The translations under genes and the position numbers were made by a program. From the NCBI GenBank assembly GCA_003144275.1, contig NJBF01000065.1, forward strand, positions 1 through 13,229: DNA of 13,229 bases, read 5' to 3'. Of this stretch, positions 4,354-12,098 are shown one piece after another. The DNA is from Candidatus Heimdallarchaeota archaeon B3_Heim. Its GTDB lineage: Archaea > Asgardarchaeota > Heimdallarchaeia > Hodarchaeales > Hodarchaeaceae. Under the pieces are notes generated by a model. The model was not told the origin of the DNA and ran no database searches. It saw only the letters and a program-made list of their open reading frames with translations. The first letter of the stretch is position 1; the number at the start of each line of letters is the position of its first letter.

Positions 4354-4390
4354 GTCATTGCGATTCCGACAAAGTCGGAAGAAGCAATCT
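4354..4390. repeat. REP-like element of the GTCATTGCGA...GAAGCAATCT type between convergent genes; may double as a terminator
   Basis: Outer ATTGC/GCAAT (4357-4361/4384-4388) enclose TTCCGAC-AAA-GTCGGAA (4364-4380). Confidence 0.75.
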
Positions 4391-5400
4391 TATTGTTTTT
4401 CTTTAAGGAAAAATTCTGCCGTTTCCTGAATTGTATCAATCAAAAGTCTAAACTCCATCCCTATTATATCCTTAATCTTCTGATTTGAAAAATAAACCTT
4501 CCTATGCCCTGATCTGGCTGACTCTCTGGTAACCAAAGCTTGTTTATTCAAAATTTTACTTCTCATCCAATCCAGTCGCCAGGCTATACTTGTAAGGAAG
4601 GGGGTCGCATGAATATTTGGTGGTTTTTTATTAAAGGCATTTGCAATCATTCCAAAAACCTCTTTGTAGGAAAGATTTTCAGAAGAAATGATATATCGTT
4701 CTCCAATTATTTCACCTTCCATAAGTTCAATCATGGCTTTTACTACATCCCTGACATCCACAAAACCAGTCACCCCTAATGTATAAAATTTCAATCCATC
4801 CCAAACAGACTTCATTATACGCCCGCTGCTCCTGTTCCAGTCGCCGGGTCCCAATACCACGGAAGGGTTTACAATCACTGCTTTCAATCCTTCTTCCATT
4901 CCCCGCCAGACCTCCATTTCGGATTTAAACTTGCTTACCGAATACCACGAATGGGATTTGGAAGGTTTCCAAATGGTGCTTTCATCCACAAGCCCGGCGC
5001 CTGATTTGTCACCTAATGCAGCTGTTGAACTGACAAAACAAAGTTTTTCTATCTTCGTTCCAAGGCAGGCATTTACAACATTCGCCGTTCCCATGATATT
5101 TGTTTCGAGCATTTTTTTTCTGTCCCTTGTTTCAAATGAAACCATTGCAGCACAGTGATAGACCTTTGAAACACCCTGCATAGCGTCTTCCAGGAAGGTT
5201 ATGTCTGACACATCTCCTTCAACCCATTCGATTTTTGAGAATAATTCTTCAGGATTATCGGAATAATAACGGAATGTTTTGAGTACGTTTTCAGTTTTAC
5301 TGGTTGGGCGTTTTAAAGCTCTGACCTTTTGCTCCTTTTTAACTAATTCATAGAGCAAATGTGAGCCAACCAAGCCTGTTCCTCCGGTTATTAGGATCAT
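4390..5400 (-). CDS. NAD-dependent epimerase/dehydratase (extended SDR family)
   Basis: Rossmann motif ILITGGTGLVGSHL, YHCAAMVSF, FVSSTAALG, catalytic YSVSK (YxxxK), IVNPSVVLG. Confidence 0.92.
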   Translation of the reverse strand: MILITGGTGLVGSHLLYELVKKEQKVRALKRPTSKTENVLKTFRYYSDNPEELFSKIEWVEGDVSDITFLEDAMQGVSKVYHCAAMVSFETRDRKKMLETNIMGTANVVNACLGTKIEKLCFVSSTAALGDKSGAGLVDESTIWKPSKSHSWYSVSKFKSEMEVWRGMEEGLKAVIVNPSVVLGPGDWNRSSGRIMKSVWDGLKFYTLGVTGFVDVRDVVKAMIELMEGEIIGERYIISSENLSYKEVFGMIANAFNKKPPNIHATPFLTSIAWRLDWMRSKILNKQALVTRESARSGHRKVYFSNQKIKDIIGMEFRLLIDTIQETAEFFLKEKQ

Positions 5401-5502
5401 GGTGAATGGTGAAAAGTGAAAGATAATAATTTTTTATAGAACGCTGATTACACATATAAAGCGGATAAAAACAGATAGATTTGTGAAACGTCAAAGGTGA
5501 AT
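5401..5502 (+). repeat. Two heptamer sub-arrays (RGTGAAA type) downstream of the four-helix-bundle gene
   Basis: GGTGAAT GGTGAAA AGTGAAA (5401-5421) directly abuts the epimerase start codon. TGTGAAA CGTCAAA GGTGAAT (5482-5502) lies 5 nt from the four-helix-bundle stop. Confidence 0.8.
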
Positions 5503-5507
5503 AGAAA

Positions 5508-5858
5508 TTACTTTTTGTCCTTTAAATATTTTATCAATCCGAGCAATAATCTTCTAACCTTATTTATTTTTTCGATGATAGAATCAACTTCTTTAATAAA
5601 TTCTAATTCTACTGCAATAATCATTTGTGTTTCAACTTCCTATAGCGATCCAAGAGCTATGTAAAGGAAATGATTAAATTCTTTATCCGATCTCCTTGCG
5701 GCTCCCTCAGAAATGTTTGAAGGAACTGAAACTGCTGCTCTTTTTATTTGGCTTGTCAATCCAAATATTTCGTCTTTAGAAAAATCTCTAGTTTTGGCAT
5801 AAATCATTTTTACTAAGTTAATTGATTCTTTCCAAACATCTAATTCTTTATGATCCAT
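5508..5858 (-). pseudogene. Four-helix-bundle protein (TIGR02436 / 23S rRNA IVP / Avd-like), interrupted by one in-frame TAG
   Basis: MDHKELDVWKES...EIFGLTSQIKRAAVSVPSNISEGAAR...EFNHFLYIALGSL*EVETQMIIAVELEFI...LLLGLIKYLKDKK*. The frame continues past TAG (5640-5642) with family-typical sequence to TAA at 5508-5510, 116 codons in total. Confidence 0.88.
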
Positions 5859-5965
5859 GATAATAAATTTTAATTGGTTAAACTTAAATATGTTTTAAAT
5901 TTCAATATATTCAAATAATTACTCTTTCTGATATCTGTAGTTGAAAAAATTTAATTCAAGGCGCC

Positions 5966-6018
5966 ATTCACCTTTCACTTTTCACTTCTCACCTTTCATT
6001 TTTCACTTCTCACTATTA
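5966..6018 (+). repeat. Heptamer tandem array (7 units, TTTCACY) in the divergent intergenic region
   Basis: ATTCACC TTTCACT TTTCACT TCTCACC TTTCATT TTTCACT TCTCACT. Inverted relative to the arrays at 5401-5502 and 7196-7223. Confidence 0.9.
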
Positions 6019-6088
6019 CCTCAAATTGCTTTGAGAATTTTATATCTTTAACATTTTAGGATTCTTCATAAAATAAAAAGAAAACATC

Positions 6089-7207
6089 ATGAAAACACAT
6101 CTGAAAATTCTTTCTTTTGTTTTAATTTCTGTAATCCTTTCCACCGGATTGCATAACTCATGCTATGCACAAGAAATAGAGAAAGACCTGGAGATCAGAG
6201 CACTGCTTTTAGGTGCTCCGGATAGTGAAGATCTGCAACTTTTTAACAAATTTATCCGGGAAGCGCTTCCGGAGGAGGGGGTAAATATGCTTGTGGTACG
6301 ATTCCGGTATAAATATCAGTTTGAAAGTTATCCTGAACTGGCTGATGAAGGGGCTTTGTCAAAAAAGGAGGTAAAACAAATTCTCCAGGCGTGTAAGGAT
6401 GCCGGTGTAAAACTTATCCCAAAAATGAACTTCCTGGGTCATCAATCAAGCAGAACAAAAGTGTTACCGTTACTGACCGAATACCCTGAATTTGATGAGA
6501 CCCCTCATTTCGAACCTCCGGATCCATATGTCTGGCCTAACGAACATGATTTCTACTGTAAAAGTTACTGCCCCTCCCATCCCGATCTGCACAAGGTACT
6601 TTTTTCATTAATGGATGAACTCATTGAAGTCTGTGAAGCGGATGCCTTTCATGTAGGAATGGATGAGGTTTTTTACCTTGCTGACAGTAAATGCCCTAGG
6701 TGCAGTGGAAGAGATAAGGCAGAATTATACGCCGAAGAAGTAACAAGATTATTTAACCACCTGAAAGGAAAGAACATTACGATGTGGATGTGGGGAGATC
6801 GGTTCCTTGATGGAAAAACAATGGGGTTGGGCATGTGGCAGGCCAGCATGAATACTACCTTTAAGGCTATCGATCTGGTACCAAAAGATATTATGATCTG
6901 TGACTGGCATTATAATGAAGCACCTCCGACACCGGCCTATTTTGCTTTGAAAGGATTTAATGTGCTGGCATGTCCGTATACTGATGCTGATGTGGCTTTG
7001 TCTCAACTGGAACACATTAACCAGGTGCGTAACAGCTCAAATAAACAAATTGCAACAAGGTTAAAGGGCGTTTTTCAGACTTCCTGGGGTAATGCAAAAG
7101 ATTTTATTCAGGCCTACTACGGAGAGGATGTGAAAGAAAAAGACAAAAATTGTGCTGAGTGCTTTAAGAAGCTGTTTTCTGAGATAAGGAATAATAGTGA
7201 GAAGTGA
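6089..7207 (+). CDS. Secreted family-20-like glycoside hydrolase (putative hexosaminidase)
   Basis: N-terminal signal peptide, LIPKMNFLGH, GH20-type catalytic motif FHVGMDEV (H-x-G-x-D-E), MWMWGD and ICDWHY TIM-barrel motifs. Confidence 0.75.
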   Translation: MKTHLKILSFVLISVILSTGLHNSCYAQEIEKDLEIRALLLGAPDSEDLQLFNKFIREALPEEGVNMLVVRFRYKYQFESYPELADEGALSKKEVKQILQACKDAGVKLIPKMNFLGHQSSRTKVLPLLTEYPEFDETPHFEPPDPYVWPNEHDFYCKSYCPSHPDLHKVLFSLMDELIEVCEADAFHVGMDEVFYLADSKCPRCSGRDKAELYAEEVTRLFNHLKGKNITMWMWGDRFLDGKTMGLGMWQASMNTTFKAIDLVPKDIMICDWHYNEAPPTPAYFALKGFNVLACPYTDADVALSQLEHINQVRNSSNKQIATRLKGVFQTSWGNAKDFIQAYYGEDVKEKDKNCAECFKKLFSEIRNNSEK

Positions 7208-7224
7208 AGGGTGAAAAGTGAAAG
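7192..7224 (+). repeat. Heptamer array (4 units, RGTGARR) overlapping the hydrolase stop codon
   Basis: TAAT AGTGAGA AGTGAAG GGTGAAA AGTGAAA G. The TGA stop (7205-7207) lies inside unit 2. Confidence 0.8.
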
Positions 7225-7238
7225 GTTTTCGGATTTCG

Positions 7239-7451
7239 AACGTTTTGCGAAGCAAAACCTCACGAGCAGATTTGAGCGAAGGATAGTGCGAGCGAGTAAC
7301 TAACGTTTTGCGCAGCAAAACCTCACGCCTGTCCCGTTTTTTCGGGGAGTGGCATGTGTGTTAGATTGTGGGAACGAGTAACCATTCTGTGAGCAAAGTG
7401 AACAGAATGTCTCACAAGCAGGATTGAGCGAACGATTGAGGGAGCGAGTAA
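7239..7451 (+). repeat. Three-unit modular repeat: hairpin-CTCAC-middle-CGAGTAA
   Basis: 7239-7264 and 7302-7327 are 25/26 identical. CTCAC occurs at 7259, 7322 and 7411, and CGAGTAA at 7293, 7375 and 7445. The middles of units 1 and 3 are both 29 nt and 22/29 identical. Confidence 0.8.
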
Positions 7452-7574
7452 TTTTAAATTTTTATGCTTAACCTGTAGACAAATATCAGGACAAGACAAA
7501 CTAAATAATTCTTAACTGAAAAATATTATTTCAGAATAAAAACATGGCAATCAGAATAAAATCAAAATAAATTA

Positions 7575-7582
7575 TAATTTTG
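7575..7582 (+). promoter_or_regulatory. Possible Bacteroidota -7 promoter box for the SiaB-family gene
   Basis: TAATTTTG matches TAnnTTTG, 25 nt upstream of the ATG at 7608. Confidence 0.4.
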
Positions 7583-7607
7583 TTATAGCAAATACTGAAT
7601 TGCCCTT

Positions 7608-8744
7608 ATGAAAAACCCACCTTCAACTGATCATGCTTTTGTATATTCCCTTTACCAGAGAATGTTAAAGGATCATTTAAATTATGCATACCTGGGGATT
7701 TTTACACAGGAAATTACCAATAGCTTAATAAACTTCATACAAGGTCTTCTGAAGATAACCGAAGGTAGTCGAAAAATCAAGAAAAGGGTATTTTATGTGA
7801 TGATTGAATGCATACAAAACGTTACAAGGCATCAGGAAATGCCCGGTAAAGCCCCACCACGAAGCGATGGAATATTCCTTTTTCAAAGTAAAACAGGAAT
7901 GTATAATATATCAATGGGTAATTCAATTGATAACAAGCATATTGATTTACTGAAAGAAAAACTTGAGAAGGTTAATCAACTAAGTAAAGTAGAATTAAAG
8001 GAATATTACAAAACAGTATTGAAAAATACCGTTATTTCTGAAAAAGGTGGTGCCGGGCTTGGATTGATAGAAATTGCGAGAAAATCAGGCAATCAACTGA
8101 GGTTTAAATTTTCAAAACTGGATGACAATTTTTCTTTTTTCTTTATGGATACCTTAATTAATGAGCTTGAGGATGCCAATTCAGAACAAATGCATTTTTT
8201 TAATGGTGTTGAAGTCACAGAAAAAGTAATGGATCTGATGGATTTGAACCATATCAATCTTCTTTATCGTGGTCAGTTTTCTGAACATAAGGCATTTGAC
8301 ATGTTGGATGTGATAGAAAATGTACGGTTTCATGAAGACCAGCCCCCGTTGGTTAAAAAAAGAATATTCAGGGTTGTGGTTGAAATGCTTGAGAGTATTT
8401 CCTTGCATGGTGCAGACCTAAAATGTCTGGCAGGTCAGAAAATTGGTATCTTGTTGATAGGGAGAGAGGGAAAAACAAATAGATTAGTTACCGGGAATAT
8501 AATAATGAATGATTCAGCAAAAACCTTAGCAAAAAAACTTGACTATATCAATAGTATGAATGAAAAAAAGCTGAATGATTTTTTTATCCGGAAACTTGAT
8601 GATGAAGATATGTCGGATTTTAAAACGGATTTGGGTTTTGTGGATATGCGCAGAAAGAGTGGTAACGCATTAAGTTACCAAATTGTTCCTGTTAATTCCG
8701 ATTGTTCGTTTTTCTCCCTCGAAGTGAATATTGAAGAAAAGTAA
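7608..8744 (+). CDS. SiaB-family protein kinase with two tandem SiaB domains
   Basis: Two internal repeats: KKRVFYVMIECIQNVTRH / KKRIFRVVVEMLESISLH; KGGAGLGLIEIARKSGNQL / FKTDLGFVDMRRKSGNAL; DDNFSFF / NSDCSFF. Confidence 0.8.
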   Translation: MKNPPSTDHAFVYSLYQRMLKDHLNYAYLGIFTQEITNSLINFIQGLLKITEGSRKIKKRVFYVMIECIQNVTRHQEMPGKAPPRSDGIFLFQSKTGMYNISMGNSIDNKHIDLLKEKLEKVNQLSKVELKEYYKTVLKNTVISEKGGAGLGLIEIARKSGNQLRFKFSKLDDNFSFFFMDTLINELEDANSEQMHFFNGVEVTEKVMDLMDLNHINLLYRGQFSEHKAFDMLDVIENVRFHEDQPPLVKKRIFRVVVEMLESISLHGADLKCLAGQKIGILLIGREGKTNRLVTGNIIMNDSAKTLAKKLDYINSMNEKKLNDFFIRKLDDEDMSDFKTDLGFVDMRRKSGNALSYQIVPVNSDCSFFSLEVNIEEK

Positions 8745-11995: not shown

Positions 11996-12047
11996 TTTTA
12001 TGGTGAATTATGGGGCTTATGTCTCCAGAACCCAGCATCTGGCTAAT

Positions 12048-12098
12048 AACATATAACAATTTAACAAATAAACAGTTAACATATAACGTATAACATCC
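12048..12098 (+). repeat. Degenerate 7/8-mer array (7 units, AAC core) between convergent comF and cobB
   Basis: AACATAT AACAATTT AACAAATA AACAGTT AACATAT AACGTAT AACATCC. Confidence 0.6.

Follow-up and report, generated by a model that had tools for sequence, protein, structure and literature searches.

Proteins of the PF05635 family form a large group spread over many phyla, and they have been without an assigned function since their discovery in 1993 in rRNA intervening sequences (IVSs). The helix 45 IVS of Coxiella burnetii carries the family's ORF in a 28-bp stem that RNase III cleaves (Warrier et al. 2016, PMC4990558). It contains two to three GACAGAT heptamers, whose number differs between strains, and its ORF is decaying (PMC4990558). 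ORF-bearing 23S rRNA IVSs also occur in Leptospira, as cited in that study (Ralph and McClelland 1993, via PMC4990558). The ORF-bearing 23S rRNA IVS is the closest described system to the locus reported here.

The window analyzed is the whole 13.2-kb contig C71 of a metagenome-assembled genome (~3.95 Mb, 36% G+C), and the sequencing runs that match it come from sediment and subsurface samples. Going by what its protein homologs are called, and by this alone, the genome is probably from Bacteroidota. It contains a PF05635/TIGR02436 gene between inverted heptamer arrays (5965-6013 and 5483-5503), and whether this arrangement is an IVS-type cassette is, in our judgment, an evenly balanced question. 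As in the 23S rRNA IVS, a protein of the same family is encoded in the loop, the terminal inverted repeats give a putative stem of ~20-30 bp, the tandem heptamers of the 5' arm vary in number between strains (seven vs. four at the window locus), the ORF is decaying in some strains, and there is no transposase. A sequence-only reading of the window had drawn this parallel, which holds for the 5'-arm heptamers, the strain-variable unit number and the decaying ORF (PMC4990558). Unlike the IVS, the window element lies between protein-coding genes, not in an rRNA gene, and has no Rfam match (no family at 5200-7700 at E up to 1, the flanks being protein-coding genes); its arms are pure heptamer arrays, and there are extra GTGAAAR arrays at the start and stop codons of the neighbors. 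RNase III cutting has been shown for the IVS, whereas we infer it for the window element.

Heptamer repeats of Xanthomonas (GGGAATC) and Nostoc include ~70 convergent pairs per genome and were read as G-quadruplex formers, with no gene family named (Rehm et al. 2015, PMC4692102). Like the arrays described here, they are intergenic 7-base arrays, often in inverted pairs, with variable unit number and a position near gene ends. Unlike them, the GTGAAAR units fail the quadruplex criterion (at least four tracts of at least three G); with no G runs in the GTGAAAR unit, quadruplex formation would not be expected. In the Pseudoxanthomonas relative L086, GGGAAT-type arrays flank a PF05635 gene that lies between genes read as accB and accC. 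REP/RAYT and MITE repeats are likewise small intergenic elements bounded by inverted repeats, but the window element lacks a Y1/DDE enzyme as well as unique-sequence terminal inverted repeats, its arms are locus-specific short-period arrays, and it is not multiplied in the genome. A literature search under the family's names returned no description of an armed cassette outside rRNA. If the layout is general, it would join rRNA intervening sequences, Avd-like four-helix-bundle proteins and the unexplained intergenic heptamer repeats of bacteria.

Heptamer arrays around a four-helix-bundle gene

On its left side the contig carries a polysaccharide locus with genes for a NusG-like protein, a sugar transferase, a 562-aa protein and an epimerase. 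Where the sugar-transferase gene adjoins the beginning of the 562-aa ORF (2579-2640), there are AGTGGC/AGTAGC repeats with periods of 12 and 24. The features from the epimerase rightward are as follows.

4390-5400, minus strand: NAD-dependent epimerase/dehydratase gene, downstream co-oriented neighbor of the four-helix-bundle gene
5401-5422, plus strand: proximal array, three heptamers, adjoining the ATG of the epimerase (pattern search)
5423-5482, minus strand: epimerase leader, ~60 nt, conserved in relatives showing no four-helix-bundle gene upstream of the leader
5483-5503, plus strand: inner downstream (3') arm, three heptamers (GTGAAAC, GTCAAAG, GTGAATA), starting 4 nt past the TAA of the four-helix-bundle gene
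5508-5858, minus strand: PF05635/TIGR02436 four-helix-bundle gene, 116 codons, broken in the window strain (profile matches)
5640-5642, minus strand: premature TAG at codon 73; TCG (Ser) in other alleles
5859-5964, minus strand: A/T-rich spacer of 106 nt between the 5' arm and the ATG, long enough for a putative promoter of the gene's own
5965-6013, minus strand: upstream (5') arm, seven GTGAAAR heptamers (pattern and inverted-repeat search)
6089-7207, plus strand: GH20-like secreted protein gene, divergent upstream neighbor of the four-helix-bundle gene, between the arrays at 5965-6013 and 7197-7226
7197-7226, plus strand: fourth array of four heptamers (GTGAGAA, GTGAAGG, GTGAAAA, GTGAAAG) (pattern search)

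The arrays were searched with GTGAAARGTGAAAR, allowing up to 2 mismatches, and compared with 200 shuffles. There were 13 matches to GTGAAARGTGAAAR vs. 0.97 expected, and none of the 200 shuffles reached 13. Read on the minus strand, the 5' arm consists of GTGAGAA, GTGAAAA, ATGAAAG, GTGAGAA, GTGAAAA, GTGAAAG and GTGAATG, so that its true period is 21. The three arrays named in the sequence-only reading are all present; the fourth array and a second repeat family had been overlooked there. Its proposal of complementary, nested arms around the gene is borne out: 5483-5502 and 5966-5985 are complementary at 18 of 20 positions, with the gene inside the 463 nt between them. The proximal array can be paired with the 5' arm as well (5401-5422 with 5972-5993, 86% complementary), and the longest inverted pair of the region (5984-6018 and 7192-7226, 35 nt, 83%) has the GH20-like gene between its arms. 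The outer arrays touch their neighbors closely: the proximal array (5402-5422) is one base from the epimerase start codon (the reverse complement of ATG at 5398-5400), and the TGA of the GH20-like gene (7205-7207) lies within the second unit of the fourth array.

In the whole genome there are no arrays of the GTGAAAR unit beyond these four, all on the window contig. Among 1314 short-period arrays of the genome, inverted pairs 80-2500 nt apart are found only at two loci, both with PF05635 genes, on C42 and C71. No heptamer excess was seen in the genome overall, and neither cassette's repeat unit was found to have spread within it. Inspection by eye revealed no target-site duplication or direct repeat outside the arms, and no transposase or recombinase gene was found in the window.

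Other short repeats occur on the same contig. A solitary array of ~7 heptamers at 12046-12096, of the ATAACAT type (GTTAT type on the complementary strand), separates the convergent ComF-like and Sir2 genes; it has no inverted partner, and there is no four-helix-bundle gene nearby. Directly after the fourth heptamer array, at 7227-7460, there are three tandem non-coding units (hairpin, CTCAC, variable middle, GAGCGAGTAAY) that match no Rfam family. The depth of this module exceeds that of the flanking genes several-fold to ~70-fold (contig depth, four metagenome runs). Single units of it are present at C39:4984-5097 and C89:6747-6820, flanked by TGGAAT-type short repeats, which are in inverted order at C39.

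The assignment of the gene to the family is supported by profile scores. The 72-aa N-terminal ORF scores 94.2 bits against PF05635 (E 7e-27; cut-off 33.8), which rises to 122.8 bits when one TAG is read through, and an intact allele (P0123) scores 119.5 bits against TIGR02436 (cut-off 24) and 143.3 bits against NF008911 (cut-off 137). The conserved motif of the family is GxxRxxxSxxxNxxE (PMC3936711). Its RxxxSxxxNxxE part is found in the window protein (R40, S44, N48, E51) and is invariant in the alignment of relatives; the first position is Q, not G, in the subfamily of the window protein. Owing to the TAG at codon 73, the window does not hold an intact frame of ~115-125 codons. Intact alleles of 116 aa are found at L015, L016 and L102 (proteins P0122 and P0123).

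The surroundings of the gene had been read as a protein-coding operon, a description that does not fit: the upstream neighbor runs in the divergent direction (a SiaB-family kinase-like gene comes after it), and between the four-helix-bundle gene and the epimerase there is a conserved leader motif. A promoter and terminator scan gave nothing above shuffles, with no terminator between these two genes, and the organism probably uses promoters of another type.

Inverted arrays around other members of the family

That other loci of the family might lack inverted arms had been named beforehand as grounds for rejecting the cassette; such arms are found both at the second family locus of the genome, with another unit, and in 47 of 76 relatives. 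The second PF05635 gene (C42:4600-4914, minus strand) is intact and full-length. It is flanked by inverted arrays (C42:4328-5013) of a TTAGTTAGCTGGTTAC-type unit with period 8/16, which start just past the TGA of the upstream gene, and two of them lie downstream. The nearest protein relatives of the window gene, L098 (68% identity) and L099 (66%), have GTGA-type arms. The L099 cassette is within a polysaccharide operon, with the upstream gene's TGA inside the arm. Upstream of the L098 cassette, at L098:140-330, there is a second inverted GTGA-type pair ~110 nt apart with no gene between.

A pattern scan using one genome per species and an alignment of 24 relatives yielded 80 loci from many phyla. 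For 76 full-length genes, an arm score was calculated by comparing the 300 nt upstream with the reverse complement of the 300 nt downstream, with a threshold of at least 28. The sample is the subfamily nearest the window protein, to which the conclusions apply. The numbers reaching the threshold were as follows.

PF05635 genes: 47/76
Random positions at the same loci: 1/318
Other ORFs at the same loci: 9/152

A gene between inverted heptamer arrays is a real layout, typical of the close relatives of the window gene (47 of 76 relatives vs. 1 of 318 controls). The nine high-scoring other ORFs include four more divergent PF05635 genes, one Y1-transposase-like gene and one DUF559 gene; a RAYT-like gene flanked by palindromes is present in the control set. 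A DUF559 endonuclease-like gene (L059:984-1343, minus strand; 119 aa) lies ~1.6 kb from a PF05635 cassette, between the copies of a 33-nt inverted repeat with many runs of G and of C (score 66).

If the arrays were ordinary intergenic simple repeats of the host, comparable to the heptamers of Xanthomonas and Nostoc, then their position around the gene would be incidental. This would agree with the array at the epimerase ATG in relatives with no four-helix-bundle gene upstream of the leader, with the solitary array at 12046-12096, and with the many heptamer arrays, some in inverted pairs, that Rehm et al. 2015 describe with no gene family named (PMC4692102). The survey result, however, strongly disfavors such a reading, which we regard as very improbable: random positions rarely reach the score of the family's genes, a blind scan of ORF flanks recovers more PF05635 genes, and the inverted array pairs of the genome are at PF05635 loci only.

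The surveyed genes are mostly embedded in the direction of their neighbors. Fifty-nine of 73 relatives are co-oriented with both neighbors, with median gaps of ~60 nt that are filled by the arms; with such an arrangement both arms would be on a read-through transcript. In 24 armed loci of 47, the end of a long upstream ORF lies -5 to +16 nt from the first base of the arm. The upstream arm is C-poor on the sense strand (9% C, 47 armed loci). Stops in all three frames are present in 26 of 47 upstream arms vs. 7.5 expected from mononucleotide shuffles, an excess that is not taken as shown because C-poor periodic units alone would give ~21 of 47 by a rough estimate.

Three Flavobacteriaceae genera have one cassette at the same site, which indicates vertical descent and shows that such cassettes can be retained over long periods. 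Within these three orthologous cassettes, 6-mer sharing is 0.25-0.32 within a genome and 0-0.31 between genomes, an only partial excess that is at most suggestive of concerted change of the two arms. Where a genome has more than one copy, their arms differ, which would limit pairing or recombination between copies.

Strain variants and the epimerase flank

An exact look-up of the window's epimerase gave no record, and close homologs were used in its place. DNA and protein searches did not find the orthologous locus in 25-40 catalog relatives. Short DNA matches in L002 and L003 were considered as relatives of the locus and were read as looking like chance matches. Through close homologs of the four-helix-bundle gene and the epimerase, variants of the same lineage were found at L015 (NCBI GCA_964515985.1), L016, L017 and L102, and two sources agree on them: the contig alignment, and the contigs of four runs compared with the window.

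Codon 73 of the four-helix-bundle gene is TCG in L015, L016, L102 and run X2, and TAG in the window, L017 and runs X3 and X4. Since both TCG and TAG are found among the samples, the gene was intact until recently and the TAG is a real population variant; the nonsense mutation in the window strain is recent. The arrays vary as well. The 5' arm has seven units in the window and two runs and four units elsewhere (a 21-nt indel), whereas the proximal array has three units in the window and four in the other strains and L010 (a 7-nt indel). Indels of 21 nt and 7 nt between samples indicate that the arrays gain and lose whole units, as slippage would predict.

The epimerase relatives L010 (95% identical), L011 (91%) and L012-L014 (74%) retain the synteny of the polysaccharide locus, and all of them have the leader plus a CTTTCAC/CATTCAC array directly before the epimerase ATG. 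The four-helix-bundle gene was not seen in the stretch upstream of their leader. In L010, only 265 nt of unrelated sequence precede the contig end upstream of the leader, where the gene would be expected; the corresponding region of L011-L014 contains tRNA genes and a small GIY-YIG gene, which is decayed in L012-L014. The GIY-YIG gene of L011 (L011:175-459, 94 aa) lies between a tRNA-Val gene and a tRNA-like remnant, and a 49-nt palindromic insert at L011:700-750 interrupts the proximal heptamer array of that contig.

Every epimerase relative examined has the proximal array, with or without a four-helix-bundle gene upstream. Because relatives with no such gene upstream of the leader retain it, the array is not specific to the cassette. 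It had been taken as the distal arm of the cassette, a role that must be withdrawn: it belongs to the 5' region of the epimerase, common to those relatives. From sequence comparison, it was probably either already in place earlier or is the relic of a former cassette; an array near a cassette with the same unit class could possibly be the relic arm of an earlier cassette or the result of recombination via similar arrays. The leader motif (ATCCGC, ATCAGCGTTCYAT, an A run, and TTA) recurs on other metagenome contigs (L101:5040-5100; L103, minus strand, 60-140), where its core lies ahead of the coding start of unrelated genes. Since the core precedes other genes on unrelated contigs, the leader is probably the epimerase's own regulatory region, and the motif may be a clade-specific promoter or 5' leader element.

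Homology between the window and its relatives ends at the inner arm (5483-5503), where three different upstream contexts are joined. L010-L014 are half-empty sites, because the epimerase flank matches and the other flank differs. They are compatible with gain of the cassette in the window lineage or with its loss elsewhere. Empty-site alleles had been proposed as a check on the cassette, and the outcome is divided: half-empty sites were found, but a filled/empty pair matching on both flanks was not. A pattern scan of metagenome contigs gave no clean empty site with both flanks matching, only one more filled contig and unrelated loci with the leader motif alone.

The end of homology could be explained at the DNA level. 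Under this explanation the inverted arrays would serve recombination or insertion as fold-back or hairpin DNA, moving the gene together with its arms from site to site or promoting rearrangement at the site, and an RNA stem would be a by-product. In its favor are the joining of three upstream contexts at the inner arm, a shared unit class for related proteins in unrelated contexts (L025/L068, L033/L046, L098/L099/window), arms starting a few bases from a neighbor's stop codon in 24 of 47 loci, and the absence of a sense-strand G-U excess among arm mismatches (see below). Against it, the window has no transposase or recombinase gene, no target-site duplication was seen by eye around the arms, copies in the same genome do not have common arms, descent at one site is vertical in three Flavobacteriaceae genera, and the filled/empty pair matching on both flanks was not found. 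We consider it unlikely that the arms act primarily as DNA.

Proposed pairing of the arms and possible binding by the protein

The reading we favor, tentatively and at a little below an even chance, is that the arms act as an RNA stem that is cut by RNase III, so that the cassette RNA is released or trimmed from the neighboring message. With both arms on one RNA, a stem of ~20 bp or more would form with the gene in its loop; RNase III would cut this stem, as it does for family members in 23S rRNA, and the cleavage would free the cassette RNA or trim it from the adjoining message. The repeat structure would preserve a usable stem despite slippage. The other two arrays, at the epimerase ATG and at 7197-7226, are not arms of the cassette proper. 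In the predicted fold of the window strain's long allele, the proximal array can pair with the three extra 5'-arm units. This RNA model is favored because of the published behavior of the rRNA-borne members, the co-directional embedding of most relatives, and the predicted fold. The minimum-free-energy fold of the sense RNA has -127.7 kcal/mol (z -2.1, 20 shuffles); in it, the seven-unit 5' arm pairs with both 3' arrays and covers the bases adjoining the epimerase ATG. An RNase III-like gene is present in the genome.

Some observations sit less easily with an RNA stem. The window locus has a divergent upstream neighbor and 106 nt between arm and ATG, and hence a promoter may lie within the arms and leave the 5' arm off the transcript. 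Arm mismatches in 47 relatives are not enriched for G-U-compatible pairs on the sense strand (48 vs. 65 of the A-C type), and at the level of sequence comparison this gives no sign of selection for an RNA helix in the sense orientation. Two of the four arrays are unaccounted for as arms of the window cassette, and period 7 is not accounted for by RNase III. A DNA-level or protein-binding role of the arms would be compatible with the RNA model.

Among the 47 armed loci the period is 7 in 41, 8 in five and 9 in one; the prevalence of 7 points to a molecular ruler, for which a plain stem would have no use. The nearest solved structures are XCC0516 (2GSC, E 3e-26) and 2RLD, with five chains per entry. 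The four-helix-bundle protein might thus be a pentamer that binds the heptamers as RNA or DNA, one unit per subunit, serving autoregulation, RNA protection or ribonucleoprotein assembly, and binding sites on either flank of the gene would be all that the inverted layout provides. The unit class also tracks the protein lineage. Arm similarity, measured as shared 5-mers, is 0.025 below 45% protein identity, 0.085 at 60-70% and 0.21 above 70%; the correlation is matched by 8 of 500 label permutations, and, judged from these sequences, the repeat unit type follows the gene lineage, as it does in the unrelated contexts that share a unit class (L025/L068, L033/L046, L098/L099/window). However, the similarity of units fades below ~60% protein identity, so that co-inheritance with fast turnover fits equally, and the arms remain beside the nonsense allele, though that mutation is recent. 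A protein-binding role of this kind is, in our view, rather improbable.

A more specific proposal, which we consider unlikely, is that the arrays are the cognate sites of the pentameric protein, one 7-base unit per subunit. Gene and arms would then be a module complete in itself, inserted at the ends of genes and insulated from its neighbors. Insulation is consistent with arms that are C-poor when read inward, with three-frame stops, and with neighbors that end or start at the arm edges. If the protein-binding module were true, it would supply a function for the IVS protein family and account for the reported excess of intergenic 7-base repeats, and the array at the epimerase start in relatives would be a relic or a landing pad. 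For the RNA model as for these alternatives, the locus is useful because related sediment populations contain, side by side, arms of both lengths, the intact as well as the nonsense allele, and relatives that retain one array; these natural variants lend themselves directly to experiments on stem formation, on RNase III cutting and on binding by the protein.

Nucleic acid binding has a precedent in Avd, a related protein of diversity-generating retroelements, which binds nucleic acid. The window protein shares with Avd a related four-helix-bundle fold and family, and close relatives give a faint match to PF22296 (bAvd). Unlike a diversity-generating retroelement, the locus has no reverse transcriptase or template/variable repeats near the gene, and reverse-transcriptase (PF00078) matches in the genome are confined to three genes, on contigs C40, C13 and C2. 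The domains at C40:2610-3083 and C13:4027-4500 lie in very long frames (1244 and 1718 codons), which is unusual for bacterial retroelements.
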